DNA of 64,000 nucleotides from a virus (taxonomy: Duplodnaviria; Caudoviricetes): IMG/VR virus record IMGVR_UViG_3300042291_000844, positions 32,001 through 96,000 of that record; one strand, written 5' to 3'. The notes beneath the pieces were generated by a model, which was not told where the DNA came from, ran no database searches, and worked only from the letters and a program-made list of their open reading frames with translations. Positions 32,537-62,934 of the stretch are shown here, piece after piece (position 1 is the stretch's first letter; the number at the start of each line of letters is the position of its first letter). A program made the position numbers and the translations under genes.

Positions 32537-32540
32537 ATTT

Positions 32541-34653: not shown

Positions 34654-35276
34654 TTTCCTGTTCCATAATGTGGATATTTTGATTTATATTTATAATAGAT
34701 AACATCTTCTGGTATTTCTCTCTGAATTTCCCCCCAAGTGTGTGATGTCGGTGTATTTGTAGAAACTTCATTATCTTCAACTACAAAATAAAGAGGTAAG
34801 TTGTGATTTCTAGCGTATTTATGTACCTCATAAAAAATTCCAGTCTCAAAAGTCATATCACCAATGAAACACCACACCTTTTTATCTTCACCTTTTAGTT
34901 TAATTGATTTAGCAACACCCAATGCAATAGGTAAAATCCCCGTTACAATGGCTGAAGAGTAAAAATTACACTTTTTATTTACAATTGTTATACTTCGACC
35001 ATCTAAAATCTCATCTTTTAACCAAGATTCATCAATCCCATGCAAAAGTGCATGATAATGAGACCGCCAAGTAGAAAATACCCAATCATCTATACCTACT
35101 TTTTTGAATATTTCTATTAACTCATCCTCATTTCCATTTGATAAATGTATTGGGCCGTGGATATCTCCTGCTTCCCAATGTTTAATGATATCGTCTTCAA
35201 ATCCAATGAGTTGTTCTTTTGTAAGATTACCATCAAGCCAACGGTCTTCGTGATAATTCAAATTTTTAATTTCCAT
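34638..35276 (-). CDS. TPP-dependent dehydrogenase E1-alpha (short)
   Basis: G.IHLSNGNE, ST.RSHYH, TPP motif variant GDM...EDN; 212 aa. Confidence 0.82.
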   Translation of the reverse strand: MEIKNLNYHEDRWLDGNLTKEQLIGFEDDIIKHWEAGDIHGPIHLSNGNEDELIEIFKKVGIDDWVFSTWRSHYHALLHGIDESWLKDEILDGRSITIVNKKCNFYSSAIVTGILPIALGVAKSIKLKGEDKKVWCFIGDMTFETGIFYEVHKYARNHNLPLYFVVEDNEVSTNTPTSHTWGEIQREIPEDVIYYKYKSKYPHYGTGKWVVF

Positions 35277-35850
35277 TTTTATCTCTATTTGAAAGTATTG
35301 GTTGTGCTACGGGCCATTCAACATTAAATCGTTTATCGTTAAACACTATTGTTTTTTGTTTATTCTCATCGTTATATTCACCTTCATATGCCATTTTGTA
35401 AAAAAAGATAGAATTATCCTCCATCACATAATGACCATTAGCAAACATTGGTGGAATTAGAACTTGAGTACCAGTTTCCGGTGAAATTATAAAAGATTCC
35501 CATTTACCATAAGTTGGTGAGTTTGGTCTAACATCCATTACAACCAAATATATACGACCATGCAGACAACTTACTAATTTCCAAGTCTTTTCATCATAGT
35601 GCATTCCTCTCAATACACCTACCTTTGATTTTGAGAACCTATCATGCTTAAATTCTAACCCATTGTTGCGTTCAGCGGCGGGCAACAAACGGTCATAATA
35701 CTCTGAGTGATAAGTTGTAGAGATTGAACCTCTATATTCGTAATACGTGGATGGTTGTACGATTTTTATCTCTGGTAATACCAATCCATTGTAATAGTGA
35801 AAATCATTCCACTCTCGTTCCTTATAAAATATACTACGTCCTGTTGCCAT
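35266..35850 (-). CDS. rfbC: dTDP-4-dehydrorhamnose 3,5-epimerase family
   Basis: S.S..GVLRGMHY, KLV.C..G.I..V..D.R..SPTYG.W, .IPP.FANG. Confidence 0.9.
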   Translation of the reverse strand: MATGRSIFYKEREWNDFHYYNGLVLPEIKIVQPSTYYEYRGSISTTYHSEYYDRLLPAAERNNGLEFKHDRFSKSKVGVLRGMHYDEKTWKLVSCLHGRIYLVVMDVRPNSPTYGKWESFIISPETGTQVLIPPMFANGHYVMEDNSIFFYKMAYEGEYNDENKQKTIVFNDKRFNVEWPVAQPILSNRDKNGN

Positions 35851-36805
35851 AACTTAAAGGGAATCCATTTCTATATTTTGAAGATAAGTCTTGGATTAAA
35901 ATTTTATATGTTTTTATTAATTCTATGATTCCATCATCTAAACTATATTGGGGAGTCCAACCTAATGATTCTAATTTAGCATTGGAAACAATATAATCTC
36001 TTTTATCGGGGTCTTCATAATAATCCGAATATGTGATTGCAAAATCAGGTACATATTCTTTGATTTTTTCTACTAATTGTTGTTTTGATAAATTAGCGTT
36101 TGAAAGGCCCACATTAAATACGTCTCCTTTTAATTTTTCATAATTTTCTATCATATACACAAATGTATTTGCAACATCTCTGATATGAATGTAGTTTCTT
36201 ATGAAATTTTTCTCAAAAATGGTGATGTACTTATCAGTTAATGCTTTGTAAACAAATTCATTAACAAGTAAGTCCATTCTCATACGTGGTGATGAACCAA
36301 AGACGGTGGCAAGTCTAATTGAAATACCACCATAGTTTAATACTTCTCTCTCAGCATTAACTTTGGTTACACCATAATGAGAAATGGGGTTTAGTGGACT
36401 CTCTTCAGTACACTCACCATTCTCTCCTATCCCATACCCACTATTTGTGTTGGGGTATATAATCTTTTTATTAGAATCTTTTATTCTATCACATATAAAT
36501 TGTACATGAGTATAATTTACTGCAGTAGCAAGGTCTTTATCTCTATCACAAGCCGGAAATCCTACGATTGCTGCTAGAGGAATTATTACATCTGCCTCAT
36601 CAACATATTTTGAAAGTTTTTCCTGGTCTCTAACATCACCATAAATGAATTCAAAGTTCTTTCTCCAACTATAATGTATTAATGATGTTTGGTTATACAT
36701 TAAATTATCATAAACTGTAAGTTTAGTAATTCCACCATTATTAAATAACCTCTCAATTAATACCGAACCTAAATAGCCTGCACCACCTGTAATTAAAACA
36801 TTCAT
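35834..36805 (-). CDS. NAD-dependent sugar epimerase/dehydratase
   Basis: GGAGYLGS, LAAIVG.PAC, YGVTK, RLATVFG.SPRMR.DLLVN. Confidence 0.9.
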   Translation of the reverse strand: MNVLITGGAGYLGSVLIERLFNNGGITKLTVYDNLMYNQTSLIHYSWRKNFEFIYGDVRDQEKLSKYVDEADVIIPLAAIVGFPACDRDKDLATAVNYTHVQFICDRIKDSNKKIIYPNTNSGYGIGENGECTEESPLNPISHYGVTKVNAEREVLNYGGISIRLATVFGSSPRMRMDLLVNEFVYKALTDKYITIFEKNFIRNYIHIRDVANTFVYMIENYEKLKGDVFNVGLSNANLSKQQLVEKIKEYVPDFAITYSDYYEDPDKRDYIVSNAKLESLGWTPQYSLDDGIIELIKTYKILIQDLSSKYRNGFPLSYGNRT

Positions 36806-38229: not shown

Positions 38230-38933
38230 TCTTTATCGTATTTATTTAAATTATTACCATTATTGGTAATATCTAAAATTTTGTATGGAGTTGTTTCATT
38301 AAAATCATAATAAGCAACAGGTTTGTGTTCTGGTATTATTATCTTAGCAAAAGCATCTTTAATTTCATAATCTGTTAAATATTTTTGATATACTCCAATT
38401 AATTTATATTCACCAAAAAAATGATGTCTATGTTCTATTGATGAATTTTCTAATGGGTTTGCACATCCAATCCATAACCAAGATGAATTATAATCTATTA
38501 ATTTATTTGGAACATCAATTATTTTTTTACGGTCGTTTACAATTAATTGTAATTTTTGATTAATAATATCATATGAAAAAACTAAATTAATATATTCATC
38601 ACTAATATCAGGTGTATTTATAACATCATTCAATGGTATAACAATTTGACATATACCTTTTTCTTCTGGTGTTTCTGTTTCAACCCAAACTGCACCTTTA
38701 ACAATTCTAAAATTATCACCGGTTTTAGCAACTGATATACCTAAATGTTTTCCATTTTTTATCATTACTGCGGCTTCTTGTGTATTTGAGTTTTCTTGCA
38801 ATTTACTCCAATCTACCTTTATTTGACATAAAAATGTAAAATCACTATTAGTAAGATGTCTTGATGATACCTTACTTAATCCATATCTACTTGTAGGTGG
38901 GACGAACCAAACTGAATCTCCATTTATAATCAT
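38211..38933 (-). CDS. Stand-alone LamG / concanavalin A-like domain protein
   Basis: WIGC.N...F.GE......Y...L...EI, .AYYDFNE pattern shared with the GT7 inserts. Confidence 0.65.
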   Translation of the reverse strand: MIINGDSVWFVPPTSRYGLSKVSSRHLTNSDFTFLCQIKVDWSKLQENSNTQEAAVMIKNGKHLGISVAKTGDNFRIVKGAVWVETETPEEKGICQIVIPLNDVINTPDISDEYINLVFSYDIINQKLQLIVNDRKKIIDVPNKLIDYNSSWLWIGCANPLENSSIEHRHHFFGEYKLIGVYQKYLTDYEIKDAFAKIIIPEHKPVAYYDFNETTPYKILDITNNGNNLNKYDKEWMDSN

Positions 38934-40375
38934 AATTTAATTGTTTTAGTAAATTCATAAAAATCAGCTAATTCTGGAAATATTTTTTTAAAATCTGTTC
39001 CTCTACGTTTATCGTGCTCTTCAAAATATTTTCCAAAATTATATCGTTGTTCAAATAATTTTTTATCATCAATTGGTGCAATCATCCAATCATATGTTCT
39101 TTTAATTTTTTGAATTTCTATATCAGAATATCCAATATATTTGTTTTCAAATAAAGGTACTGATAAAAAATCTGCTCGTTGTGCTTGTTTAAAAATTAAA
39201 TCAGCAAAATCATACGGAAGAACTTGAATTGTTTGATGGGTTGGATATCTTAAATAAGATGTATCTAAAAATACAGCAGATTGCCAATATCTATCAGCCG
39301 AACCATAATTCTTTTTTAAATCATATACCCCATCAATTAATTTATGGTAGTTTGGAACTGATAACGCGTTATACGTTGTCATAAATGTAAGATTTACTCT
39401 TGGACACTTTGTTAATATTTTATTTACATTATCCCAAAATCTATTAAATTCTAATCCATGTCTAATATATTCAGCTTGTTCTCCCCAACTATCACATGAT
39501 GTAAAAATAATAAATTCTCTAACTCTATTTTCATCACAAATTTTATTTACCTTGTCAATAAATTTATCTATTAATTTATCAGGTACGCCTAAATTTGAAT
39601 TAATTGCAAGTTGTAAATTTCTATTTGGGTCTGAGTGGTCTATTATATAATCTAATACATCCCACGTATCTTTTGACATTAAGGGTTCACCTCCGGTAAT
39701 TCTGAATGTATGCAAATCCTTATACAAATCAGGCCACCATTTCCAAAACGCATCAACATAGGGATTTAATTCACTATGTTTTATTGGCATTTTGTTTTCT
39801 GATTTGTTATATTCTAATGAATTAAATCCGTCAGTTGTTGGATAAGCTCCAAACTCTTCAATTTCTTCCATCCATTTTGATGAAAATGCAGGTGCACAAT
39901 ATGAACACTTAAAATTACAAGCGTTTGAAAATGCTACTTCTACATATTTTGGATTATAATCATCTCTCCAATCAGAATTTTTAATTTCATCCATAAATGG
40001 ATAAGACCAACTTTCTGCAGATTTAAATGTTCTATCGGAAAATCTATCTGAGTTATCCTCTACTCCCCAACAATAATCACACTCCGAAGGACGTTGCCCC
40101 TCTAACATCTCTTTTCTTCGTCTTTTCTTATATTGGGTATTATGTAATGCAGATGGGTTTCGTGCAATTTCTTTTGTAGGAATTGGGTGTGTACGGGGGT
40201 GATGACATGAATGAGTATGACCCAATTGTAAGTGTAATGTAGTTTGTGTCCATTTAGCCAAACACATACCATTTCCCGTTTCGTTTAATTTCTCTCTAAC
40301 CCCTAAATAAAATGGGTTTTCGCCAGTTAATGAATTTTTAAGTTCCGTTGATTTTATATTTTCTTCTTCTGCCAT
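38930..40375 (-). CDS. Radical SAM protein with N-terminal twitch-like Cys cluster
   Basis: CNFKCSYC, ITGGEPL; N-terminal C.AKW..SCHH and C.YCW. Confidence 0.9.
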   Translation of the reverse strand: MAEEENIKSTELKNSLTGENPFYLGVREKLNETGNGMCLAKWTQTTLHLQLGHTHSCHHPRTHPIPTKEIARNPSALHNTQYKKRRRKEMLEGQRPSECDYCWGVEDNSDRFSDRTFKSAESWSYPFMDEIKNSDWRDDYNPKYVEVAFSNACNFKCSYCAPAFSSKWMEEIEEFGAYPTTDGFNSLEYNKSENKMPIKHSELNPYVDAFWKWWPDLYKDLHTFRITGGEPLMSKDTWDVLDYIIDHSDPNRNLQLAINSNLGVPDKLIDKFIDKVNKICDENRVREFIIFTSCDSWGEQAEYIRHGLEFNRFWDNVNKILTKCPRVNLTFMTTYNALSVPNYHKLIDGVYDLKKNYGSADRYWQSAVFLDTSYLRYPTHQTIQVLPYDFADLIFKQAQRADFLSVPLFENKYIGYSDIEIQKIKRTYDWMIAPIDDKKLFEQRYNFGKYFEEHDKRRGTDFKKIFPELADFYEFTKTIKL

Positions 40376-40401: not shown

Positions 40402-41859
40402 TTACAATTTTACATTTACTAACTTTGCTTTGGGGGATATTTCATCGATACTCACCAACTCATATTTTAATTGAGCAATACCATCTGATTTATAATCCCA
40501 AATACCTTGTTGCATTTGTAAAACATATCTTTTTTCGTTTCGTGCAGTTGTTTCTCCCTTTGCCCATTTATCAACTCCACCTACTTTAATCAATCCTTCA
40601 TCTTGATGTGGTAAACAACGTAATCTACCTTGTCTTCTAAATGGAATAATTGTATATGGGATTTTAATTTGGTCTGATTTAAGTTCGCATCGTTTTATTT
40701 CGCCATTTATATTATTTCCAGATAAATCAGTTGCAATTCTAGCATCAATTTCATTATTAAAATCATAATGTAATACTAATCCATTTTTTGGTAATTCATT
40801 TTGTAAATTTTCAACTTCTTCTTTTTCTAATTTACGATTCCACATCATAATCTTTGCTATATCACCTTTAAACCATTTGTTGGGTTCGTTTCTACCAACT
40901 GAAGTAGTTGTTCCAATATAGTAATCATCTAAACCATAACTCTTTAAACGATTATCATAATGAAGTGGTGATGTTGTACCAGTTCCATGTCTTGCATCTG
41001 ATTCTTTTCCATTTAAATAGAAATGAATATTTTGATTTACGGAATCAACTGATAGGGTTACCCAACTCCATTGATTTTCATAACGTTTTATCCATTGATA
41101 TAAGTGATTTTGCTCACTATCCCATAATTGTGCAGTATATGCTCTACTATTATTATAAGAAATTCCATAATCAAACCCTGGTCTTCTTATAATTGGATAT
41201 TCGCAGAATCTTCTATCATCATCACCTATTAACCAAATGGGAACTTTTTCTTCTTGTTGATTTGCTCTAACTAAAACTGATATTGTATGAGAACGTGATG
41301 TTAAATTTCGAAGTGTATTATTTTTTTCAATTTTAATATAAGATGCTTTACCATTAAAATGTAAATAATTTTGAATAGTAGTATTATAATTCATATATGA
41401 ATCATTAGCATATCCTTCTAATACACATCTCCAAAAAAGGTCATCATCTTCCATTCCCCAATCCCAATAATCATTTGAATACCCATTGGTTTTCTCTACT
41501 TGTTCTTTTGAAAAAATGACTGCACCCCCAAAGTACTCTTCATACTTTAGTTTATAATCCATTTGAGATATATTAGTAGCAATGTGAATTGGGGTTTCAC
41601 TTGGAAATGAGTAATCACATCCTTCTTCGGGTATCATATCAATATCATGCCAAACTATATAATCACACCCATCTTCAAACGCGTATTTAGCTGCAACATT
41701 TTTCATTGCACCTCTATTAAACAGCTTATCATCAACTTGATGTCCAAAGTAAATACAATAATCAATACCTTGTTCTTCAAGATACTTTCCTATTGCTGGA
41801 ATAAACTCTTTTAAATGAGTTTCTCTATTTCGATATGGTACACATACTCCTAATTTCAT
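40402..41859 (-). CDS. GT7 (beta-1,4-galactosyltransferase-like) with inserted LamG domain
   Basis: VPYRNR, FNRG..KN, HDIDM, YFGG, NGYSN.YW.WG.EDDDL; LamG insert; DG...L.Y C-terminal remainder. Confidence 0.85.
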   Translation of the reverse strand: MKLGVCVPYRNRETHLKEFIPAIGKYLEEQGIDYCIYFGHQVDDKLFNRGAMKNVAAKYAFEDGCDYIVWHDIDMIPEEGCDYSFPSETPIHIATNISQMDYKLKYEEYFGGAVIFSKEQVEKTNGYSNDYWDWGMEDDDLFWRCVLEGYANDSYMNYNTTIQNYLHFNGKASYIKIEKNNTLRNLTSRSHTISVLVRANQQEEKVPIWLIGDDDRRFCEYPIIRRPGFDYGISYNNSRAYTAQLWDSEQNHLYQWIKRYENQWSWVTLSVDSVNQNIHFYLNGKESDARHGTGTTSPLHYDNRLKSYGLDDYYIGTTTSVGRNEPNKWFKGDIAKIMMWNRKLEKEEVENLQNELPKNGLVLHYDFNNEIDARIATDLSGNNINGEIKRCELKSDQIKIPYTIIPFRRQGRLRCLPHQDEGLIKVGGVDKWAKGETTARNEKRYVLQMQQGIWDYKSDGIAQLKYELVSIDEISPKAKLVNVKL

Positions 41860-43292
41860 TAAATACCAACAGTTATAATTTGTATATTTTTATCTATCTT
41901 TCTTTTATTGTGTTCTACAAAATTTAAATCAGATAAACCATCAGTTTTTGTTAATTCTGGGTTTTCCATTACTTCGTTAACCAATCGAAGTTGATTCCAA
42001 CGTGTGTTATCTGTTTTCCAGCGATTCCCATTAAATCCATTATTTTCATGTTTAATAGATTTAAATTTAGAATATCTTCTATGTGGTATATTAAAATCTA
42101 CATCATTGATAGCACCACTTTCGCTGATTTCACAATTTATTATATTACCTAAATTATTATGAGGTGATAAATCAATTAATTTATAATCTCTTATAAATGT
42201 AGTATCATAATATGTTTTTAAATAATCAGATGAGGCATATTTACCAAAATCTTTGTTTAATAAATGTTCAGTATTATTTGTAATTTCAATAATTTCATCT
42301 TGACTTAATTTACTATCATAATATGCAAAATATTCAAATGAACCATTAAACCAATTTGGTATTATTTCTCTATTTGGATTACCAACTCCTATATAAAAAT
42401 ATTTTTCATTTTTATAATTTTTATTGAATTTTACAATTTCTTCGCTTTCACCTACAAAATTCCCATCTTGATACATTTTTATTTTTTTAGAAATAAAATC
42501 ATATACTAATGTAATATTAGTTTTATATGCAGGTTTTATTTCGGTATTTAAATAAATGGCTTTTAAACTACTATCAAATAAACAAAAATTATATCTATTA
42601 AATGATGTGTATGATATTGCAAAATCATATCCTGGTATACTGAAAATAGTAAACTCATCCGATTGTTTAGTATGGTCTAATTTTAACTTTGCAGGTTCAA
42701 AACAAATTGTTATAGAAAAATCTCTATGTGTAGTTATTATATTATTTGATTGGATATACGAATTAATACCATTAAATTTTAAAATTTGAGTATTTTTACT
42801 TACATTTTTTATTTTTATAGTATCTAAATCTAATTCATTAATTTTGCATCTATAAAGTAAATCATCATCTTCAAACCCCCAACCCCAATACTTGTTTGAG
42901 TATCCATTTATTTTTTCAAAATCTTCAATTGGAAACATTGTTACTCCACCAAAATACGAATCAAATAGTTTTCTTGCTGGTTCATCATCATCTGGTATGA
43001 TATCTGTTGCTAAGTGAACCGGATATTCACTAAGTGAATAATCAACATCAATAGGTAACATATCTATATCATGAAATACTAAATAATCACAACGTAATTT
43101 TTTAGCATATCGGTATCCAATATTAAGGAGCATTCCTCTATTGAATAGTTTAGCATCATCTTGCTCTACAATTATAATTTTATAATTAATATCTTTATCT
43201 GCCAGATATTCAACTATGTGTTTTGTAAAGGTATCAAGCTGAGTATATCTATTTCGATAGGGAATAATTATACCTAATTTTTCTAAGGACAT
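41859..43292 (-). CDS. GT7 with inserted LamG domain, tandem paralog
   Basis: IPYRNR, FNRG.LLN.G, FHDIDMLP, YFGGV, NGYSN.YWGWGFEDDDL; LamG insert. Confidence 0.85.
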   Translation of the reverse strand: MSLEKLGIIIPYRNRYTQLDTFTKHIVEYLADKDINYKIIIVEQDDAKLFNRGMLLNIGYRYAKKLRCDYLVFHDIDMLPIDVDYSLSEYPVHLATDIIPDDDEPARKLFDSYFGGVTMFPIEDFEKINGYSNKYWGWGFEDDDLLYRCKINELDLDTIKIKNVSKNTQILKFNGINSYIQSNNIITTHRDFSITICFEPAKLKLDHTKQSDEFTIFSIPGYDFAISYTSFNRYNFCLFDSSLKAIYLNTEIKPAYKTNITLVYDFISKKIKMYQDGNFVGESEEIVKFNKNYKNEKYFYIGVGNPNREIIPNWFNGSFEYFAYYDSKLSQDEIIEITNNTEHLLNKDFGKYASSDYLKTYYDTTFIRDYKLIDLSPHNNLGNIINCEISESGAINDVDFNIPHRRYSKFKSIKHENNGFNGNRWKTDNTRWNQLRLVNEVMENPELTKTDGLSDLNFVEHNKRKIDKNIQIITVGI

Positions 43293-43575: not shown

Positions 43576-44436
43576 TTATATTTTTGTAATTTGTTTTGAT
43601 AATCTATTCCATTTAGAATAATCACTAAAATCTGATATTTGGTTTGTCATTTTCTCAATTGAAAATTTGTCATTATTAATATCAATTTTAAAATTATTCC
43701 ATTGGATTGCATTATACATCAATTCATATTCAGTTGAAAATGCATATTCTTTTTTAATATCAGCAACTGCTTTAATTCTATCTACGCAAGTACTATCCCA
43801 TTTAAAATGATGTACTTGAATTAATCCTTCACCTCTTCCAATTGGATATCGTTTTGGATGTTTTGTACCCCAGCTATTTGTACCATCTTTAAACTCTGCA
43901 TAATGTTGACCAGATGATATTTTAATAAACCCTTTCATTATACAAACTTTATTTGGACAAGCCCCACTCATTGGATATCTAAAAAATCCAGCAAGTGGGA
44001 ATTGTGTCCAAATATTTGTATGTTCATTTATCTGAGGAAACTCTCCATTTTCTCCTATCCTGTCAATAAACCCACCTGTAACGAATTCCCAATCATTTTC
44101 TTCGCAATCAGAAATTAATTCTCTAATTGGTTTTGGATAAATGTGAAATTCATCGTCATCTGAAACTACCCACCAATCATTGGGGTGTAATAATTTTGTT
44201 TCGTTATATAATTGAGTAACATATTCCCAATTAAATTTTTCTTTTATTTCTCGTCTAACAATTTTTGCTTTAGGAAATTCTTTCACAATCTGATAAACAA
44301 TATCATATGTGCTGAATCCATCCCACTCATATACAACAACATATATTTCATCTACCAAATCATTATAGTGATTTAACATATGATGTAGAGTATTTGTTCT
44401 ACTTCCGGTTACTGTAACTAATCTAATTTTTTGCAT
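43576..44436 (-). CDS. GT2-like glycosyltransferase (Glyco_tranf_2_4-like)
   Basis: HY...VD, W.VVSDDDEF, GGFIDR, KV.I, H..V.HFK. Confidence 0.7.
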   Translation of the reverse strand: MQKIRLVTVTGSRTNTLHHMLNHYNDLVDEIYVVVYEWDGFSTYDIVYQIVKEFPKAKIVRREIKEKFNWEYVTQLYNETKLLHPNDWWVVSDDDEFHIYPKPIRELISDCEENDWEFVTGGFIDRIGENGEFPQINEHTNIWTQFPLAGFFRYPMSGACPNKVCIMKGFIKISSGQHYAEFKDGTNSWGTKHPKRYPIGRGEGLIQVHHFKWDSTCVDRIKAVADIKKEYAFSTEYELMYNAIQWNNFKIDINNDKFSIEKMTNQISDFSDYSKWNRLSKQITKI

Positions 44437-45209
44437 CGTTGGATGAATGTTAAACCAGTAGATGTTGGTTTATTTCGTAGTATACCATTATTAAAAAAAT
44501 TAAATATTTCCCAATTACCCGTTTCTTTTAATTCTTTTATTAATTTAGATGGGCCTGATGAGAATTCATGAAAATCATTTTTATTTTTTATATCATTGGT
44601 AACAATTAATTCTTTTTCGAATGATGAATCGGTATCATGAATTGATATTATACCATAAGGTGAAAGAATTTGTGAATATAATTCAAAATCATTTTTCACA
44701 TCTTCATATGAATGACCTGCATCTATATGTAGATAATCAATTTTAATGTCCTCTTTAACAAAATAATTATAAAAGGCATTTTCGGTAGTATCTATAATAA
44801 ATCTGCAAGGAAAATTGGTTCTAAAAAAAGATTCATCATCTTCCCAATCAGTATTACCACCTATACCATTTGATGCATCTACTAAAATTGTAGTACCACA
44901 ATCGCCCCATTCCATAGCTTTGATTCCTCCAAATATTTGTTGGTCGTGCAAATCAATTCTAGCTTGTGACATTATTCTCGGAATAAATCCACCACCACTT
45001 CCTAAACACACACATGTTTTTGCTCTAATGTATTGGATTGTGGCATAAATTAATAATCCATCTCCAATATGATAATCTGTAGCTCCATGTGACCATCTAT
45101 ATGCAACTGGTTGATATTCAGAATACTCATTACCATTAGTATCTATTTTTTTAGTTCTATTGTTGGTAAAGAAATCTTTTAAAATATTATAATCGATGAT
45201 ATTGCCCAT
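44418..45209 (-). CDS. Class I SAM-dependent methyltransferase (Methyltransf_24-like)
   Basis: CLGSGGG motif I variant; IDYLHIDAGHSYE.V..D, G.I..HDT. Confidence 0.8.
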   Translation of the reverse strand: MGNIIDYNILKDFFTNNRTKKIDTNGNEYSEYQPVAYRWSHGATDYHIGDGLLIYATIQYIRAKTCVCLGSGGGFIPRIMSQARIDLHDQQIFGGIKAMEWGDCGTTILVDASNGIGGNTDWEDDESFFRTNFPCRFIIDTTENAFYNYFVKEDIKIDYLHIDAGHSYEDVKNDFELYSQILSPYGIISIHDTDSSFEKELIVTNDIKNKNDFHEFSSGPSKLIKELKETGNWEIFNFFNNGILRNKPTSTGLTFIQRCKKLD

Positions 45210-45390
45210 ACATTGAATAATGTTAATGAAATGCTAGAAATATGCTATTAGCTTAATAATAATATAAGTTAATTAAGATAGTATAAGTGATAGTGTAATA
45301 GCTTAGTAGCTTATCCCCCTACCCCCTTTAGTATATAAATATATAAAAATATACCAAACGATAAAAAAACTGAAAAATAAATATTTGGAA

Positions 45391-46428
45391 TTATCCCAAA
45401 ATTGCTGTACGGACTTTATCAATCCATACGTCTTTATTATCAAATTTTATCATATATTCTTTAAGATTTTTTACGTTTTTAACCCTCTCTTCATGTGAGT
45501 CGGTAAGGATTTGTTTAACACATTCATCAAATTCATTTTTGGTTGAAACTCTATATTTGTAATCAACCTCCGGTGCCCAATCTTTATTTATTATTGGTAA
45601 TTTACCATAATCTACTGCTTGAAATATTGAATATCCAAATGGTTCTTTAAAATACGCGGCGTGAAATATACCAAAATTTTTCATCATAAAAAAATGATGA
45701 TGGTTAACATCCCATTGAAAAACTTCCATGCCTTTTAATGAATATGTACTACTATCTTTAAGATTTTGTAAATCAAACTGATTTGTTAGAATATATCCCT
45801 TATGGTCGTTTAACCAATGCACACATTTTCTCGATTCAATACGAGAAGCAAATCCAATTTTACCATTATCAACATGAGTGGTAAGTGGTAGGTTATTTTT
45901 AAACTCGTAAAAATTTGGAACATTATAAGTATAGTTTGGATGTTCATCAATCATACTCGTAGTATTATTACCCACCCAAATCCTACGATTAAATGTTGCT
46001 AAATACTCATCATAAAATTCAGAATCAACTCCTGTATTATATTGTAATCTTTTTAGTTCCGGGATAGCAGAAATTGCTGCATCCATCTCTCTAGCATATG
46101 CATGAACAAAGACGGTTTTAAATTTATCTTCAAAATGCCAAATATGTGGTCTTAAATGATAATGTGGATGTAATACGTGGATTTCCTCACACTCATCTAA
46201 CCACGCTCTAGTCTTTTCAGGGTCATCGTAGTGAAAATGATGAACCAATCCCTTCGGTAAGTATTTTGATTCGAATGAAGCGGGTCTCTTGGAATCAATT
46301 ATCAATCTCCAATCCCTTTTGACAGGAAGTGTTGGCCAAACTAATTCTAAAAAATAATTAGTCCATATATCGGCACCGCCCATAACAGTATTACCACATC
46401 CAGTTGTAACTAAAACCTTTATACTCAT
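45391..46428 (-). CDS. GT-B fold (GT4-like) glycosyltransferase
   Basis: GGAD.W N-terminal loop, GFASR...K, EPFG..IFQA...G..PI. Confidence 0.7.
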   Translation of the reverse strand: MSIKVLVTTGCGNTVMGGADIWTNYFLELVWPTLPVKRDWRLIIDSKRPASFESKYLPKGLVHHFHYDDPEKTRAWLDECEEIHVLHPHYHLRPHIWHFEDKFKTVFVHAYAREMDAAISAIPELKRLQYNTGVDSEFYDEYLATFNRRIWVGNNTTSMIDEHPNYTYNVPNFYEFKNNLPLTTHVDNGKIGFASRIESRKCVHWLNDHKGYILTNQFDLQNLKDSSTYSLKGMEVFQWDVNHHHFFMMKNFGIFHAAYFKEPFGYSIFQAVDYGKLPIINKDWAPEVDYKYRVSTKNEFDECVKQILTDSHEERVKNVKNLKEYMIKFDNKDVWIDKVRTAILG

Positions 46429-46449: not shown

Positions 46450-47235
46450 TTATAAAAAATCGAAAAAATTTATATCATAGTACTCATTAACTTTTTTAGT
46501 ATATTCATCATTTAGTTTTGATTTAAATCGCTCACTACAATCAGTAAGAAAGATTTCGGCATGGTCATCTTGCTTTCGATTACTTCTATCATATAAATGA
46601 TATATTGGCGTATGTTTATAGTTAAGAATTGAATAACCCATACCAATACTTCGATAAGTTGGGTCAATCTCATCATATCTCCAACATAAAAATTTATCAT
46701 ATCCAACTTTTTCTAACCACTCAATTGTAGTAAAATGATATCCTCCTGCAATAGTTGATTTACAATAATCTTCACCATTATTATTTGGTTTCATTACAAA
46801 TGGATATCCACCTATTTTTTCTCTATTCCAATCATTTGCATGATGTGCTTTATTTTCTTCAAATTTACCATATAATGGATATGCAGGAGGATATGCCGAT
46901 AAAATGGAGTTTGGTAATAATGCATTAATTAATATGGTATCCCAATTTTTATCAAATCTCATATGACTATCAATTGATAAAAAATATTTAAATTCAGGTT
47001 CTATAAAATATTTAGCAAGGGAACGTATCCAACAAAGATTTGAAAATTTTCTATAATCAACATTTATTAAAGTAACTTGAGATGGAAATAAATCTTGAAA
47101 AAACATATCTGATTGTCTATCTTGATTAAACACAATAATTTTAATATTATTTGGATTTTCTGCTTTATTTATCAAATCAAAACAAGTAGGAATTACTTCT
47201 TTATCTAATCTGCAAGGTATATAAACGTATATCAT
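46450..47235 (-). CDS. Skp1-hydroxyproline GlcNAc-transferase-like protein (GT60-like)
   Basis: IDSHMRF...WD..LI, ILSAYPP.Y, AGG..F, .EI..T.R, YHLY; ATG 47235 overlaps upstream stop (ATGA). Confidence 0.75.
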   Translation of the reverse strand: MIYVYIPCRLDKEVIPTCFDLINKAENPNNIKIIVFNQDRQSDMFFQDLFPSQVTLINVDYRKFSNLCWIRSLAKYFIEPEFKYFLSIDSHMRFDKNWDTILINALLPNSILSAYPPAYPLYGKFEENKAHHANDWNREKIGGYPFVMKPNNNGEDYCKSTIAGGYHFTTIEWLEKVGYDKFLCWRYDEIDPTYRSIGMGYSILNYKHTPIYHLYDRSNRKQDDHAEIFLTDCSERFKSKLNDEYTKKVNEYYDINFFDFL

Positions 47236-48062
47236 CGGATAAACCAATCTTTTATTAAATTATAAAAATCGTTATTTGGGAATTCTGCTATATTATGATT
47301 TGGGAATGTTGATTTTTTAAATATTGGGTCACATGAATAATGTGCAAAATAATGTTTTTCTTTATCAAATTCATTTATGTTTGGAAAATATGTATTATCT
47401 TGTCCTATACATTTTATTCGATTATTATGACAAGCAATTTGAAATGACCACATTTGTTGCCACCAACCAAATGGAGAATTTAAATGATTTCTAGCAATAT
47501 CAATACCGATTTCAATAACCTCATCTATTATTCGTTTTAAAGTTTTAACTTTTATAATAATAGGAACAAACCCACCATCCATATATTCGTGGGTGTCGTG
47601 TTTTAAATATGGTTCGACTATTTTATAATTTTCCTTATCAGGTCGACTACATTTCATATGCCAATTTTCATATTTATCACAAGTTACAACTTCATCGTCA
47701 TTAGGTAATATTCCATCATATTTTTTAAATGGAATTACATCACAATCAATTATACAAACATATTCATTATTATCTAAATCATTTAATATTTGTTTAATTG
47801 CAAAAAATAAATTTCCTGCTGAAAAATATGGATGTTCATCTGATAGGGGTAATATTGTATGAACTCCATCTACAATTTTGTATGGTATACTTAAATTCCA
47901 ATCAACATCCTTAATTATTTTACCATGAGAATTTCTATCTGCAATTAATACAATAGAATTCCAAAATGCTAGATTCCCATATACATTTTTTTGTGCATAT
48001 TGAAATAAACTACTTTGCCATTTAAATAAGTTATTTGATACTGCTACGGGTATTGTTATCAT
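47232..48062 (-). CDS. Hydroxyproline O-arabinosyltransferase-like (GT95/GT96-like) glycosyltransferase
   Basis: KWQ..L.Y, IIDCD DxD, GG.VPIII, FGWWQQMWSF, HY motifs collinear with recalled plant HPAT motifs. Confidence 0.6.
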   Translation of the reverse strand: MITIPVAVSNNLFKWQSSLFQYAQKNVYGNLAFWNSIVLIADRNSHGKIIKDVDWNLSIPYKIVDGVHTILPLSDEHPYFSAGNLFFAIKQILNDLDNNEYVCIIDCDVIPFKKYDGILPNDDEVVTCDKYENWHMKCSRPDKENYKIVEPYLKHDTHEYMDGGFVPIIIKVKTLKRIIDEVIEIGIDIARNHLNSPFGWWQQMWSFQIACHNNRIKCIGQDNTYFPNINEFDKEKHYFAHYSCDPIFKKSTFPNHNIAEFPNNDFYNLIKDWFIR

Positions 48063-48681
48063 ATTTTTTTAATAATTCGTATATTTTGTTTGCAATTATT
48101 TTATAACCTAAATAATTTGGATGGGTATCACCACCATCAGTATTTTGCCAACTATATGGATATCTAAAATTATATTCCCAAACAGAAATATTTTTTTGTT
48201 TTTCATAATCTATTAATAAACTACTCATAGTTAATTCTTTATCAATAAATCTACTTAAATTAATATTAGTTGTATCTAAATTTAATTCAGTCATAAAAGT
48301 TTTTGCAAATGAATTAAATAGAAAATAATTATATTCTGATAATAAAGTTGTTATAGATTTTACATCATCAATAGGGTTACCATTATCTCTATATGGATAA
48401 CTTAGCATAATAATAATAATATCATCTTTATGTAAATATTCTATATTTTTTTTTATTTCTTCAACAATATTTTTATTACTAAAATTACACCATCCACAAT
48501 TCACAAATGGTAAATCTAATAATGTAGCTAAATGTCTTGGCCATCCATTTGAATTTCTTAATTTATTAGTAAATTCATTTGGTGAGATAACTTCTTTATA
48601 ATGAATATCCAATTCAACCCCATGTCCTTGTGTCCAGGAATCACCAAATGTAATTAATCGTGTATTAGACGTTACTTTCAT
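48031..48681 (-). CDS. SGNH/GDSL-fold protein
   Basis: FGDSWT block I, G..N, DTHPN..GY block V. Confidence 0.75.
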   Translation of the reverse strand: MKVTSNTRLITFGDSWTQGHGVELDIHYKEVISPNEFTNKLRNSNGWPRHLATLLDLPFVNCGWCNFSNKNIVEEIKKNIEYLHKDDIIIIMLSYPYRDNGNPIDDVKSITTLLSEYNYFLFNSFAKTFMTELNLDTTNINLSRFIDKELTMSSLLIDYEKQKNISVWEYNFRYPYSWQNTDGGDTHPNYLGYKIIANKIYELLKKYDNNTRSSIK

Positions 48682-49864
48682 ATTCCCAATTTTTTAATTT
48701 ATAATGAATATACATATTTCTATAATATTCACCTTCAAATTCATCTTTTCTTCCGTGTAAACAAACGGCAGATTCGTACAATAATACATCTCCTATTTCC
48801 ATATAAATAGTATGGAGGTTTCCATTATGGTCTTCTATTTGTAACCCCCAATCATTTCCATCGCCTAAATTTTTATCTATCATAATAATAGATGATATAT
48901 GATGAGTTTCAAGTCTATCGTAATGTGATACTAATTTAGCACCTTTATTATAACTTCGGATACCATAGATATATGTAGGTTCGATTTCTTCACCACACCA
49001 ATTACTATGTATTGATTGTAACTTTTTATGTAAATTATTTTTTAATTCTGGAATCGTATCTAATGGTAATATATCAGATGTATTATTATTACCTAATATA
49101 ATACTTTTTTTATGTTCAAATAATTCTTCTGTTTTATTATTTTTAACTGATTCGTACATTGTATTTACTAATTCTAAATCTTCAACTGACAATTTGGTTA
49201 GTAAAAACCCAGTTTCACTTAGTTTTGGTAACCCATCTTTTGTAGAAAATTTATTTTTTAATGATTTTATTTTTGGATATTTTGCATCGTATAATTTTAA
49301 ATCTAACGTTGAATTCCACGGCTTTTCTCTAACCCATATTGTTATAATATATTTAGAACCATCTATTACATCACACCCCTCATGTAACGAATCGGTTGTC
49401 GGTATACCATCAACCATATTTTGCCACGCAATCGCAGTTCCAATTTTTGGAGTAAACGTTAAATCTAAATTATGAAATTTAGTTTCACCACCCACAACGT
49501 CCTCATTTAAATAAATCATAACCGTCCAACATCTATTACCTGAATGTAAACAATGTTGTTCATATGAATGTTCATTAAACCAATCGTGATGTTGTCTAAA
49601 AAATTGTCCTTTTTTATATACTTGTCCTTGAACACTTTCTATATGATTAGCAGGTAATCCTACTTCTTTTGTAACTTTTTGTTTTATTTTTTGCGTAATA
49701 AATTGTCCTTCTTTAATATTAGAAGTTGAACTTGTTCTAGCATCATGTAATACACCAACATAATTACCGACCACAGTACTTGGTTGATTATTTGCATCAA
49801 TTTGTTTTATTAAATCAATACATTCATCGTTAGATAAAAAATTATCAATTTGTCGTATTATCAT
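48665..49864 (-). CDS. Prolyl 4-hydroxylase with a second 2OG-Fe(II) domain
   Basis: Domain 1: RTSS, Q...Y..GQ.F..HHDWF, R..T..IYLN....GGET.F, H....V..G.K...T.W.R; domain 2: SHYD...HG. Confidence 0.88.
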   Translation of the reverse strand: MIIRQIDNFLSNDECIDLIKQIDANNQPSTVVGNYVGVLHDARTSSTSNIKEGQFITQKIKQKVTKEVGLPANHIESVQGQVYKKGQFFRQHHDWFNEHSYEQHCLHSGNRCWTVMIYLNEDVVGGETKFHNLDLTFTPKIGTAIAWQNMVDGIPTTDSLHEGCDVIDGSKYIITIWVREKPWNSTLDLKLYDAKYPKIKSLKNKFSTKDGLPKLSETGFLLTKLSVEDLELVNTMYESVKNNKTEELFEHKKSIILGNNNTSDILPLDTIPELKNNLHKKLQSIHSNWCGEEIEPTYIYGIRSYNKGAKLVSHYDRLETHHISSIIMIDKNLGDGNDWGLQIEDHNGNLHTIYMEIGDVLLYESAVCLHGRKDEFEGEYYRNMYIHYKLKNWEYESNV

Positions 49865-49870
49865 ATTTTA

Positions 49871-51520
49871 TTAGTCTTGTGCTTTTATTTCTGCTCTATT
49901 GTGTACTAATATTCCATTACCAAAATAAACATCATCTTCTTCAATTCCAAGTGATACTGTATTTAAACTTTCATTTATTATATCGATGGTTTCAATTAAT
50001 ATAAATTCATCATTATTATTTAATAATAAATCACCTTCTATTAAATTTTTAACCTGTAAGAATATTACTTCATTATTTCTTTTAACTAAAATTGGATGTT
50101 CGTATGTTACTCTTAATAATCCATTATTTATGGAATAATACCAACTATATGAACCGTGAATTAATCTATTAACTACCGAAGTTGATTTTGTATATTGTAA
50201 ATCGTTAGTTGCAAATATTTCCCAATTTTCTTCTATATTTTTATCTAATCCTGTTATAGAAAGACTCATTACCACATCTCCCATTTCTAAATTTTCAATT
50301 AATTTAGTAGAACCATCACTCATTAAAATTTCACTTCCATATGATAAACAAGGAGCACAACCTGAATTCTGACATTCTTGTAAACTTGTGTATATACCAA
50401 ATACATTATCAATTTCACATACCCCATTATTACAACTATATAAATCCCCAACCGGTGGGAAATAAGTAGGTACAGTTGGTATAGTTGGAGCTACATAAGT
50501 AGGAGTTACATCCGGAGCCGGAGTTACTTGTGGTGTTACATTTGGAGCAGCGTCACAATTTATATTTCTAACTTCAACCACCGATATATTATACGAACTA
50601 TCGTACACCGCAACATAATAATTTCCATTTGCTAATTGATATGCACTTTGATTTAAATTATATGCGTTAGGGTCATTAAAATTAATTGCTTGATTACCAA
50701 TGTGATAAACATAATTTCCAGAACCACCACTTACGGTCACTATATCAATATATCCATTACCTGCATAACCAAAACAACCTACATTAAGTGTCATTGATAA
50801 GAAATACGCAGCAGGAGTAACATTTGGAGCTGGAGTTACTTGTGGTGTAACATTTGGAGCTGGAGTTACTTGTGGTGTAACATTTGGAGCTGGAGTTACT
50901 TGTGGCGTTACGTTTGGAGCCGGAGTTACTTGTGGTGTTATGGCTGGTGATGGAGTAAATCCACAAGCCAATGCACATGTGTTATATCGAGTAGTCTTTA
51001 ATAAAACTGCAATACCTGGAGATGCTTGGTCAAGAATTTTATAATTATAAGTCAACTCATTATCAGCAGTTCTATAAAATCTATTTAATAAAACAGTTGT
51101 ATCAATTGGAAATGCAACAAGTACTTCAGATTGTGAAACTGTACCACAATTACTACACACATATTCATCTGCTAAATAAAAATCATATGGGTAATATGCA
51201 GGTGTAACATTTGGAGCAGGAGTTACCTGTGGTGTAACATTTGGAGCTGGAGTTACTTGTGGTGTTACATTAGGAGCAGGTGTTACGTTTGGAGCCGGAG
51301 TTACTTGTGGTGTTACGTTTGGAGCCGGAGTTACTTGTGGTGTAACATTTGGACTTGGTGAACCGCTACCCCTACCATAAAACTCATCCATCCCATGCGG
51401 TTTTGTAGGAATTCCATAAGCAATCGCAGCAGTATCTAAATCTATTTGAGTACCAGATGGGACAGCCCTATCGGTATTCATATTATCCATTGAAATTTGT
51501 CCTGATGCTGGTAACGCCAT
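49871..51520 (-). CDS. Pro/Thr-repeat virion (tail-fibre-associated) protein with C-terminal Hint domain
   Basis: MALP.SG.IS...FYG N-terminus; 21 VTP units; Cys-rich spacers; CL..GS.I.M.DG, TYEHP, VHN Hint blocks. Confidence 0.8.
   Translation of the reverse strand: MALPASGQISMDNMNTDRAVPSGTQIDLDTAAIAYGIPTKPHGMDEFYGRGSGSPSPNVTPQVTPAPNVTPQVTPAPNVTPAPNVTPQVTPAPNVTPQVTPAPNVTPAYYPYDFYLADEYVCSNCGTVSQSEVLVAFPIDTTVLLNRFYRTADNELTYNYKILDQASPGIAVLLKTTRYNTCALACGFTPSPAITPQVTPAPNVTPQVTPAPNVTPQVTPAPNVTPQVTPAPNVTPAAYFLSMTLNVGCFGYAGNGYIDIVTVSGGSGNYVYHIGNQAINFNDPNAYNLNQSAYQLANGNYYVAVYDSSYNISVVEVRNINCDAAPNVTPQVTPAPDVTPTYVAPTIPTVPTYFPPVGDLYSCNNGVCEIDNVFGIYTSLQECQNSGCAPCLSYGSEILMSDGSTKLIENLEMGDVVMSLSITGLDKNIEENWEIFATNDLQYTKSTSVVNRLIHGSYSWYYSINNGLLRVTYEHPILVKRNNEVIFLQVKNLIEGDLLLNNNDEFILIETIDIINESLNTVSLGIEEDDVYFGNGILVHNRAEIKAQD
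50500..51356 (-). repeat. Three blocks of 30-bp tandem repeats encoding PNVTPQVTPA
   Basis: TGGAGTTACTTGTGGTGTAACATTTGGAGC-type units at about 51198-51356, 50808-50946 and 50500-50552. Confidence 0.95.
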
Positions 51521-54500
51521 TACTTATTCTCTTTTAACTCGTTAATTTCTTTTTTTAATTCCTTAATACATTCAACTAATAAAGGTACGATTTTTTCGTA
51601 TTTTATAGCAAGATATCCATCATCTCTTATTGCAACAACTTCAGGTAGAATTCCTTGTACTTGTTGAGCAATTAAACCCACATCGTGTTTTCTAAAAAAA
51701 TAATCATCTTCACCCTTACCATTACTTTCTCTTTGGATATATTCATCTGTCCAATCAAATTCTACTCCATCTAATTTTTCTATTTTATCAAGTGCGTTAT
51801 CTATTGGTATAATATTTTCTTTTAATCTTTTATCTGATGATGCAAATGCAGTTATGTTTCCTGTTGCAGTAATACCACCTCCGACTTCTACAAAAGTATC
51901 TTGAACTGTTCTTGCAACTTTAATATACCTAAGATTACTTGCTACGACTTGAAACCCACCGGGAACTAATTCTACTCTATTATCATCCTTCGATAATGTT
52001 ATTGAATTAATTTTAGGAGTATTGAATGATACATATAATGAAAATGTAGATACCGAACCAAAATAATCACGAGATACAGTTGAAAACGCAGTACTAATAT
52101 ATGGTACAAAATAATATGTTGTTGAAGCAGCAGCAGTAAAGTTTCCCTGAAACGTCCTTGAAGTACCCGTACCATCTGACCCATATACACCAACTGATTT
52201 AGAATAAGAAGTAGTATCCTCAAAGTCATCAATTCCACCAAAAGTTGTTCCAAAATTTGCAACTTCAGTACCAGTGGTACTACCTGCTCTAACCGATACA
52301 CCTGCAGTGATTTGAGTGTTTGCAAAATTTATTTTTGATTGCTGACCTCCGAAGTAGTATTGGTAAGGATTGTAAGGGTCATAAGCTTGTGTAATGTATG
52401 CAGTTACTGCCGCTAATTGTGCTTGACTTATTACGATATCCAGATTATATATTCCCGCATTAGTTATAGTTACAGCAGGAGCAGAGGTTAAACTATAAAG
52501 TCCCCCAGCTAGTATGTTGACACTAAGATAAGTACTACTAGCATTATTTGCTGTTTGAACATCATTAAGAGTGGCGGTATGGGGGATACCAGAGGTTGTT
52601 ATCCCTGAACCACCTGTTCCAAAATTGGTCAATGAAGCCTGATTACTTACTAATACTCTTAAAGTGTTAGATGTATCATAAATTTCTAAACCAGGAGTTG
52701 TTGCTGATGGATTTAATTTTATACTATTAGAATTAGATGAGAGGGTTGTTTGGTTAATTGTCCACCCACCGATAACCCCAGCACCTGCAGTAATAGTAGC
52801 ACCGGTAATCGTACCACCGGTAATACTACCACCGGTAATACTACCACCATTAATACTAGTTCCAGTTATAGTACTAGCAGCAAGTGTTCCACTAATTGTT
52901 GCACCCGCGGCATTTAGTACGCCGGCCGCAGTTACACTAAATGGTGCAGAATTAAATGCGGAATTTCCTAACCAAATTCCAGTTGTATCTGCTTTAAAAA
53001 TACTAGTTCCACTTCCGATTGAAATTGTACCTCCACTAAGTTCACCTGTAAATGTACCCGCACCATTAATAGTTAAAGATGAACCATCCCATTTTAATGA
53101 ATTAGTAGCAGATTTTAAAGATAATCTATATACGGGTGCGTTACTAACATTAACTACCCCCATAAAAATACCATTTACATCGTATCCTTGTGAACCAGCA
53201 GTTGCACTTTGACCGATAGATATATACGGATATGCACTACCACCTGCTAAAGTAATATTTGCTGCTGCCATTGCACCATTCGAATTCGTACCAATGTTTA
53301 AAGTTTTTTGAACAAACGAATCTTCAAATATACCTATTTTAGCTGCTACAAAGAAATCCTGTGCACCTAACGATATCCAACCCGTTTGTGCTGCTTGATG
53401 TGGTGCACCATTTATTACATTTCCTGTTGCTGAAAGATGTTGTCTAGTTGTTGCGTAATATGTATTATAAGGAGCATTTCCATCCGAACTCCATAAGACA
53501 GTATCTCTTCTACCAGTCCCCGTTGTTAACCCATCTGAAAATTGATATGTTCTACCACTCACCCAAACTCCGGTATGAACCACACCAGGACCGGTCTGAC
53601 CATTGGCACCCGGTGAACCATCATCTCCATCAGTTCCATTCGTTCCATTCGTTCCATTTACTACTTTTGTAAATCTAACAACAATAGTTTGAGAACCACT
53701 CGTTCCTTCACTATCGGTATAACTAACTACGATAGTAGCAGAAGCCTCTGCCGCATTCATTACAGCTGTGGAAGTATTTAATATATTATTATTTCCACCT
53801 ATGTTTGGATTTGTTGAAAACCCACTATATGTCGCAGTCATTGAATCAAATCTACTAGTAGTTCCTTCTAATGCAGAAATTGTAACATTTGTTAAAGTTC
53901 CTGTTTGAGTACCTGCAGAATTTGCTAATACTGATTGTGCTTGCGGTGTTGCAGTTACTATAATATTTGGAACTGCTTTTTTAACTTTTGATAAACTTAA
54001 CGTATCAGTTAAAGTCCTACTCGTTCCTTCCGAATCAGTTACTACTGCAGTTATTGTAATCGTAGATGAAGCTACCCCACTTGGTAATGTTCGTAAACCA
54101 AGAACTGGGTCTGAAACTAATCGTATCAACCCACTTGCGGCAGTTGTTGCTATTGATGCAATATCCGAAGATGTTGCAGTCAATGACGTTATTGTTTTAT
54201 TTGTTGTAGACCCATTATAAGTTTCTTTTACAATTACACTTACATCTACAAAGGGGTCTAATTGAACTCCTGTTGACTTTGCAGTTACACTTTGGTCTTT
54301 TGGTGTTGATGATATAGCTAAAACCGGTGCAGCCTTTTTAATTTTTGTTAATGAAACACCTCCAAATACATTTCTACTAGTTCCTTCGGAATCCGTTACC
54401 GAGCCCGTTATAGAAAGTTCAACCGAATCCGTTCCGGTTACCATATTTGGATATGCTAAATTTGTAGTTGTTTTTGTTATAGGTGTAAATGCTGAACTAC

Positions 54501-62902: not shown

Positions 62903-62934
62903 CAAAGATACAACAAATTTATGAGATTTCCAAA
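62903..62934 (-). promoter_or_regulatory. Bacteroidota sigma-A-type promoter (distal)
   Basis: Exact TTTG-N20-TATCTTTG consensus. Confidence 0.75.

Follow-up and report, generated by a model that had tools for sequence, protein, structure and literature searches.

The 64,000-nt stretch analysed here (the window; positions 32,001 to 96,000 of the IMG/VR virus record IMGVR_UViG_3300042291_000844) belongs to a phage and carries, on the minus strand at 47232-48062, a gene for an HPAT-family (GT95/GT96-like) glycosyltransferase (GT) of the GT-A type. The 276-aa product is soluble and has no signal anchor. The balance of our evidence tips, if modestly, toward a soluble, metal-dependent GT-A enzyme of the HPAT/SGT1 (GT95/GT96) superfamily that performs the cytoplasmic sugar-adding step of a phage route of protein hydroxylation and glycosylation, with hydroxyproline (Hyp) on the phage's own proline-repeat protein as the acceptor. 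The most economical interpretation of the locus would be a three-part module, in which a prolyl hydroxylase and a Hyp-directed GT serve an (X-Pro)n substrate.

An earlier interpretation made from the letters of the window (the sequence-only reading) had described a gene at 47232-48062 and quoted five motifs; the open reading frame is present on the minus strand and codes for 276 aa, and every motif was found in the protein in the order given. All encoded on the minus strand, these are KWQSSLFQY (residues 14-22, nt 47997-48023), IIDCD (residues 104-108, nt 47739-47753), in which a hydrophobic strand is followed by a D106-x-D108 metal/nucleotide-sugar motif, GGFVPIII (residues 163-170, nt 47553-47576), FGWWQQMWSFQIA (residues 198-210, nt 47433-47471) and AHYS (residues 240-243, nt 47334-47345). 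A sixth strongly conserved motif, YENWH at residues 131-135, had not been mentioned. An alignment of 32 members, with identities as low as 25%, shows D108, W134, G164, W200, W201, M204, H241 and K250 as invariant and D106, Y131, E132, H135, G163 and Y242 as conserved in at least 94% of members (94% for D106, 100% for D108). The motifs therefore mark function in a family and did not arise by chance.

Profile searches assigned the protein to the same family. The Pfam HPAT model (PF23452) matches with 42.6 bits against a gathering cutoff of 23.9 (E 6.6e-11), residues 77-251 lying collinearly on profile positions 71-250 of 307, and most close homologues of the phage GT carry a precomputed PF23452 hit. 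The only other Pfam match at E <= 1 was DUF5512, below its cutoff; the GT8 (PF01501), GT6 (PF03414) and GT2 models gave no match at that threshold, and PHROGs returned no family for the protein. The maximum 19-residue hydropathy (Kyte-Doolittle scale) is 1.09, indicative of no hydrophobic segment and no membrane anchor. The protein starts directly with strand 1, a start conserved across the phage/bacterial family, and the missing anchor is a feature of localisation, not of catalysis.

Structure prediction, which the sequence-only reading had proposed as a check, gave a confident GT-A model. Computed by AlphaFold2 from the alignment, it shows a single Rossmann-like GT-A domain (predicted local distance difference test score, pLDDT, 96.7; predicted template modelling score, pTM, 0.93), with D106-C-D108 after the strand at 101-106. 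A GT-A-like fold had been predicted for GT95 (PMC8476585). Among solved structures, Foldseek placed the GT6 enzymes alpha-1,3-galactosyltransferase, ABO and BoGT6a first (E 5e-7, template modelling (TM) score 0.5-0.56), while VIA-align ranked the GT8 enzyme LgtC highest (Z 15.1, 230 residues aligned, 3.8 Å), followed by glycogenin (Z 14.8) and UGGT and then by Skp1 AgtA and PBCV-1 A64R. Sequence identity to these solved GT-A neighbours is at most 12%, and 8-10% for LgtC and glycogenin; the profile of the HPAT-like family gave only chance matches against PDB sequences. In the ESM Atlas, where a predicted model is compared with predicted models, the nearest matches besides the protein's own viral cluster (TM 0.90) were three Chlorophyta clusters with 100% PF23452 and with ShK or PAN modules (TM 0.79-0.81, 254-259 residues, root-mean-square deviation 2.8-3.0; TM 0.81 is reached over 258-259 residues) and a bacterial cluster of PqqD+HPAT architecture (TM 0.81). 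By these models, the phage GT is clearly closer in structure to eukaryotic HPAT-family models than to other GT-A families, and its modelled likeness to GT8 and GT6 is structural only. A generic GT8 enzyme as best structural match had been named by the sequence-only reading as the outcome that would count against it. GT8 and GT6 enzymes are indeed the best matches in the PDB, yet trivially so, because the PDB searches returned no structure of the GT95/GT96 families; HPAT-family models are nearer.

The fold also bears on mechanism. GT6, GT8 and GT24 enzymes are retaining, and from these structural neighbours a retaining mechanism may be predicted for the phage GT. It would fit the retention expected of HPAT enzymes, which form a beta-linked product from a beta-configured donor. 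In plants this donor is UDP-beta-L-arabinofuranose (PMC6322572). The bacterial Atlas cluster has an architecture of its own: its 382-aa members, from Pseudomonadota, join an HPAT domain to PqqD, a peptide-recognition element of pathways for ribosomally synthesised and post-translationally modified peptides, which hints at glycosylation of ribosomal peptides.

The relatives of the phage GT form a family with a narrow distribution. An exhaustive phmmer search over 1.84 billion representatives yielded no more than 63 clusters (50% identity), most of them with proteins of about 275 aa, and word-seeded searches found 63-70 clusters at 90% identity, all of metagenomic proteins. IMG/VR holds at least 134 loci with the family, and further relatives lie on 14 contigs of bacterial metagenome-assembled genomes (MAGs), some longer than 1 Mb, from Pyrinomonadaceae, Pseudohongiellaceae, other Gammaproteobacteria and Planctomycetaceae. 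Against 50,697 GenBank phage records, neither tblastn with three family members nor megablast with the 9-kb region gave a match, so that no cultured phage is known among these records to carry the HPAT-like gene. The family is thus a phage/bacterial clade and not a recent acquisition from plants, and by structural modelling the phage GT is equidistant from the algal and the bacterial members. Of the label 'plant-type' given by the sequence-only reading, membership of the HPAT family stands; a plant origin does not, the protein belonging to a phage/bacterial clade and having no Golgi anchor.

A clue to the acceptor comes from a neighbouring gene at 48665-49864 (minus strand), which encodes a 399-aa, two-domain 2-oxoglutarate (2OG)-Fe(II) oxygenase. 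By phmmer, the N domain matches the solved prolyl 4-hydroxylases (P4Hs) of B. anthracis (7e-21), Chlamydomonas (1.7e-12), human (P4HA2, 1e-11) and PBCV-1 (2e-8), and its best solved relatives are all P4Hs. The Fe triad H92-x-D94 and H161 and the 2OG-binding K171 are conserved, and the N domain is, judged from its sequence, a true P4H of the collagen/plant type with that putative activity. In 27 of 28 relatives, the C domain (residues about 205-399; 48665-49264 of the window) retains H314-x-D316 and H370-G-R372. It has no Pfam match and no sequence match in the PDB, and its model (pLDDT 95.5) is that of a second oxygenase with a double-stranded beta-helix, the nearest solved folds being PHD-type prolyl hydroxylases, with Dictyostelium PhyA first and Pseudomonas PPHD and PHD2 after it. 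The PHROGs families of this domain, phrog_2954 and phrog_3531, are labelled 'ferrochelatase', which looks like a misannotation. At two other loci (L085 and L086), the PHD/PhyA-like domain is free-standing, as a 194-aa gene that abuts the GT gene.

To place these genes in a comparative frame, we dereplicated 145 loci at 80% identity of the GT into 63 clusters; the full 32-member alignment is too divergent for locus scanning, and sub-alignments were used. A P4H-type gene abuts the GT gene (within 100 nt) in 24 of the 63 clusters; the number rises to 32 for distances up to 1.5 kb and to 36 for distances up to 2 kb, and in only 4 clusters is the nearest such gene farther away. Under uniform placement (a binomial null), 24 abutting genes among 40 have a probability of about 1e-31. 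Three further clusters have a PHD-like oxygenase only, adjoining the GT gene or within 400 nt of it. Counting P4H, PHD-like and JmjC genes together, a protein-hydroxylase-type gene occurs within 2 kb in 43 of the 63 clusters.

Proline-rich proteins go together with the hydroxylases. Dense X-Pro repeat proteins, defined by at least 9 Pro per 30 aa and located within about 3 kb of the GT gene, were found in 30 of the 63 clusters: 29 of the 39 clusters with a prolyl-hydroxylase-type gene, versus 1 of the 24 without one (Fisher p = 1.8e-8). Individual loci illustrate the arrangement. At L006, the P4H and GT genes come after the gene of an 801-aa protein (15.7% Pro, in blocks of (PTPTPPS/T)n). A 427-aa fibre-like protein at L009 has a (PT)n tail at its end, and L008, of the same lineage, has the GT-P4H arrangement too. 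In five P4H-linked lineages the repeats are almost free of Ser and Thr, namely (PV)n at L092, L133 and L096, (PA)n at L018 and (PVV)n at L042; Hyp would therefore be almost the sole hydroxyl in them.

Other lineages pair the GT with a different hydroxylase or join the two in one chain. In one phage cluster (L023 and L026-L029) and at a separate locus (L061), a Cupin_8/JmjC hydroxylase gene lies 4 nt upstream of the GT gene, and in six gammaproteobacterial MAGs (L010, L151, L154, L156, L157 and L158) the HPAT-like and JmjC/Cupin_8 domains form a single polypeptide. The acceptor in the JmjC-linked lineages may be a different hydroxylated residue. Three Planctomycetaceae MAGs (L011, L152 and L153) have a JmjC gene and a DUF6065 gene, then a gene whose 595-797-aa product unites three domains (FkbM methyltransferase, GT60-like and HPAT-like). 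Further fusions join the HPAT-like domain to the GT60 family (P0093, P0100, P0103 and P0109) or to a GDSL domain (P0083 and P0145, 485 aa). In collagen LH3, a hydroxylase domain and GT domains share one target residue, and by this parallel the fusions of hydroxylase and HPAT-like domains suggest that the sugar goes onto the hydroxylated residue itself. Together with the P4H linkage and the Pro-repeat neighbours, they lend indirect support to Hyp as the acceptor of the phage GT. The central claim of the sequence-only reading, an HPAT/SGT1-family GT in a phage, is borne out by the PF23452 match, the structure model and this linkage to prolyl hydroxylases.

In the window itself, the HPAT-like gene is the fifth in a run of six on the minus strand. 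The run begins with a 1937-aa tail fibre or spike (51520-57333) that has a C-terminal S74 intramolecular chaperone (Pfam Peptidase_S74, 56 bits). Next comes the candidate substrate (49871-51520), a 549-aa protein whose translation shows three (TPQVTPAPNV)n blocks, encoded by 30-nt tandem repeats, between Cys-containing modules, and which ends in a Hint-like domain. The two-domain oxygenase follows, then a 216-aa SGNH/GDSL-like protein (48031-48681; Pfam GDSL matches below cutoff) whose gene overlaps both neighbours, then the HPAT-like GT and finally, at 46450-47247, a GT60-like GT of the 'GlcNAc' family, that of the Skp1 Hyp-GlcNAc transferase (PF11397, 73 bits, cutoff 21). The junctions, from the tail fibre to the GT60-like gene, are a TAATG in which the start of the repeat protein overlaps the stop of the tail fibre, a 6-nt gap, overlaps of 17 nt and 32 nt, and an ATGA formed by the HPAT-like stop and the likely start of the GT60-like gene, an ATG at 47235. 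Because of these overlaps and the 6-nt gap, the six genes are one tightly coupled unit. Three more genes on the same strand (43576-46428), which gaps of 21 and 181 nt separate from the core, encode a 345-aa protein, a Methyltransf_24 protein and a weakly GT2-like protein by Pfam; they may, with uncertainty, be a glycan-tailoring part of the module. A promoter and terminator scan gave hits at chance level only. The window is AT-rich (26-38% GC in 2-kb windows), and nearly all its genes lie on the minus strand.

Two of these neighbours deserve a closer look. The repeat protein matches phrog_38766, 'virion structural protein', at 8e-9. Its Hint-like C-terminus (49871-50350) gives weak Pfam matches to Hom_end_hint, PT-HINT and Intein_splicing, all below cutoff, and by its sequence suggests possible autoprocessing or ligation of the repeat protein. 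The GT60-like neighbour has no solved homologue by sequence; its family, PF11397, includes Gnt1, the cytoplasmic Hyp alpha-GlcNAc transferase that acts after PhyA on Skp1, and GT60 also contains a Thr-directed enzyme (PMC6939170).

Going beyond family membership, fold and genomic linkage, we infer the following route. The adjacent P4H would turn prolines in the (X-Pro)n repeats of the 549-aa phage protein into 4-hydroxyproline, and the HPAT-like GT would then move a sugar from a nucleotide sugar onto the new Hyp hydroxyl. The GT60-like neighbour would start a second glycan or extend the first. The outcome would be a protein, probably associated with the virion, whose linker is rich in hydroxyproline and glycosylated. 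The module would be analogous to P4H plus HPAT in plants, with extensins and arabinogalactan proteins as targets, and to PhyA plus Gnt1, with Skp1 as target.

Several observations weigh against this route. Twenty of the 63 clusters have no hydroxylase within 2 kb of the GT gene, and in 10 P4H-linked clusters no Pro-repeat protein lies close by. Neither the phmmer search of 1.84 billion representatives nor two profile searches reached plant or algal HPATs, returning the phage/bacterial clade only, and the relationship of the phage GT to plant HPATs rests on the Pfam profile hidden Markov model (HMM) and on the comparison of predicted structures. Nothing among the window proteins scanned points to a donor for the HPAT-like GT. 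Thr stands before most prolines of the window's repeat and could be the acceptor, PF23452 may extend, as may the algal Atlas clusters, to the Ser-directed SGT1 enzymes of GT96 besides GT95, and two GTs that are both candidates for the initiating step lie side by side, so that the HPAT-like one could be an extender.

The alternative that survives best, though we hold it unlikely, is an SGT1-type (GT96) enzyme that O-glycosylates Ser/Thr and would act on the Thr before Pro or Hyp, in which case proline hydroxylation would serve as recognition context or supply the GT60-like enzyme. GT95 and GT96 are related (PMC8012813), and PF23452 cannot tell the Hyp acceptor of the former from the Ser acceptor of the latter; each (TPQVTPAPNV) unit carries two Thr-Pro pairs, and many relatives lie beside (PT)n or (PS)n repeats. 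Against such an enzyme stand the five P4H-linked lineages whose (PV)n, (PA)n and (PVV)n repeats are almost without Ser or Thr, as well as the hydroxylase fusions, which, as in collagen LH3, suggest the hydroxylated residue as acceptor. It would also require the P4H linkage to be indirect.

Less probable again is a glycan extender with a sugar acceptor, in which case the first sugar, on Hyp or Thr, would come from the GT60-like neighbour and the second from the HPAT-like enzyme. The two genes adjoin here through the ATGA overlap and are fused in four relatives, and the nearest solved folds include the retaining sugar-to-sugar enzymes LgtC, Skp1 AgtA and GT6. Yet a GT60-like gene stands beside the HPAT-like gene in only about 6 of the 51 clusters with full flanks, compared with an abutting P4H in 22 of the 51, and in most lineages (for example L006 and L008) the HPAT-like enzyme is the sole GT beside the hydroxylase. 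Because most lineages are without a GT60-like gene, extension is improbable as the general role. Least probable is a target other than a phage structural protein, be it a host protein modified for regulation (as with Skp1 or EF-Tu hydroxylation), a host surface polysaccharide or phage DNA: the gene does lie at the edge of an approximately 20-kb sugar-nucleotide/GT island (28850-49864) of a type usually read as cell-surface modification, and the PHD-like second oxygenase domain resembles enzymes for host-type regulatory targets, but the gene is translationally coupled to the tail fibre and the Pro-repeat protein, Pro-repeat proteins track hydroxylase presence across lineages (p = 2e-8), the oxygenase is P4H-like and not TET/JBP-like, and small phage contigs show the module alone among tail genes, without polysaccharide genes.

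As to the donor that Hyp glycosylation would need, no UDP-arabinopyranose or UDP-galactopyranose mutase family was matched among the window proteins scanned. The island, at whose edge the HPAT-like gene lies, contains at 30996-36805 a sugar-nucleotide cassette of three short-chain dehydrogenase/reductase (SDR) epimerases/dehydratases, an RmlC-like epimerase and separate thiamine diphosphate subunits (E1_dh and Transket_pyr). The SDR and RmlC genes of the island gave generic hits, below every NCBIfam equivalog cutoff, and going by these domains the cassette may direct synthesis of a branched or 6-deoxy sugar. Inside the island we also noticed a radical SAM protein with a twitch domain (38930-40375; NF033640, 357 bits versus a cutoff of 170), two tandem genes (40402-43292) that combine a beta-1,4-galactosyltransferase-like (GT7) domain with a LamG/concanavalin-like domain, and a further stand-alone 2OG-FeII_Oxy_3 oxygenase (28850-29560). 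GT7 is an animal-type family and unusual in phages. Elsewhere in the window, a 1847-aa protein (23127-28670) joins an N-terminal cytidylyltransferase-like domain to a DUF5661 segment, an unusual architecture of an enzyme plus a giant protein, and a SegE-like GIY-YIG homing endonuclease gene (62919-63344) overlaps a sulfotransferase-family gene (63307-63879).

The phage is a distant T4-like myovirus with portal, terminase, Rad50-like and primase genes. Flavobacterium phage 'immuto' and Microcystis phage Mel-JY01 have capsid proteins that share 52% identity with its own, and the relatives of the capsid suggest a host among the Bacteroidota. The virus record closest to it (G001), a fragment that is 29% complete, has no HPAT-like gene. 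With little change, the cassette turns up again in lake-water metagenomes of the years 2018 to 2024; all carriers listed are lake water or freshwater, and there was no RNA run among the sequencing runs listed as carrying it.

Hyp O-glycosylation is regarded as characteristic of the cell walls of plants and algae, and of the Skp1 switch of protists. We put forward tentatively, and would expect sooner to see it revised than upheld in full, a broader proposal: tailed phages and some bacteria may run a complete pathway of the plant kind (P4H, a GT95-like GT and sometimes a GT60-like GT) on (X-Pro)n linkers of tail-fibre-associated proteins, as the first Hyp O-glycosylation outside eukaryotes; two hydroxylase domains (collagen-type and PhyA-type) and two Hyp-type GT families may write two different glycans at the present locus; and the eukaryotic HPAT/SGT1 enzymes could descend from a prokaryotic/viral pool. 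If true, a soluble, operon-encoded phage version would extend to the prokaryotic world a modification never shown outside eukaryotes, and virions would be seen to be modified in a way of a new class, with possible effects on the recognition of hosts, on resistance to proteases or on the stability of the particle. The 276-aa, anchor-free GT95-like enzyme, to which the PDB searches returned no solved relative, would offer a handle for structural and mechanistic work. The natural variation in partners (P4H, PHD-like and JmjC) and in repeats (PT, PV and PA) amounts to a ready-made experiment on acceptor specificity and would be a genetic handle on acceptor choice.

One of the nearest known systems is that of plant and green-algal HPAT1-3, which founded GT95, a family related to GT96 (SGT1) (PMC8012813), and which act after P4H on extensins and CLE peptides. 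Characterised members of both GT95 and GT60 act on Hyp made by P4H (PMC8012813, PMC6322572, PMC6939170). The phage enzyme shares with HPAT1-3 the PF23452 match, the GT-A fold and the P4H and Pro-rich repeat partners, and its DxD motif agrees with the use of Mn in the assay of plant HPAT (PMC6322572). In contrast to plant HPATs, which are type II membrane proteins brought to the Golgi by an N-terminal signal anchor (PMC6322572, PMC8012813), the phage GT has no signal anchor and would be cytoplasmic, is encoded in an operon and belongs to a separate phage/bacterial clade. At 276 aa it also lacks roughly the last 57 profile positions, reaches only 42.6 bits to the HMM and offers no support for UDP-L-arabinofuranose as donor. 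The peptidyl-serine alpha-galactosyltransferase SGT1/SERGT1 (GT96) resembles the phage enzyme through its relationship to GT95 (PMC8012813) and in acting on Hyp-rich repeat proteins, and SGT1 may be the type to which the algal clusters with ShK or PAN modules (TM 0.79-0.81) belong. SGT1, however, is large, sits in the membrane and has Ser as its acceptor, whereas the phage GT is a minimal catalytic domain, and the Ser/Thr-free repeats in several lineages linked to it argue for a Hyp acceptor.

In its cellular logic, the proposed route resembles the Skp1 pathway of Dictyostelium and Toxoplasma, in which the hydroxylase PhyA and then the GT60 enzyme Gnt1 act as soluble, cytoplasmic enzymes (PMC6939170). 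The phage neighbour belongs to the Gnt1 family (PF11397), and the best solved fold for the second oxygenase domain is PhyA. The Skp1 pathway differs in serving one proline of one regulatory protein, where the phage target would likely be a repetitive structural protein and the enzyme is a GT95-like GT, not GT60. Among viruses, chlorovirus PBCV-1 has a P4H (structure 5c5t) that reportedly acts on viral Pro-rich repeats (Eriksson et al. 1999). PBCV-1 thus resembles the phage in its virus-encoded P4H, homologous to the N domain (2e-8), and in its viral X-Pro repeat substrates, and we know of no Hyp glycosylation or HPAT-like GT described for this eukaryotic virus. Mycobacteriophage GTs reportedly decorate the phage's own virion proteins by O-glycosylation (Freeman et al. 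2023, cited in PMC12619734), with no hydroxylase step, unlike the proposed module. In full-text literature searches, no publication came up that connects phages with HPAT or with hydroxyproline glycosylation. The enzyme superfamily and the pathway logic are known; what is new is the phage setting and the soluble architecture.

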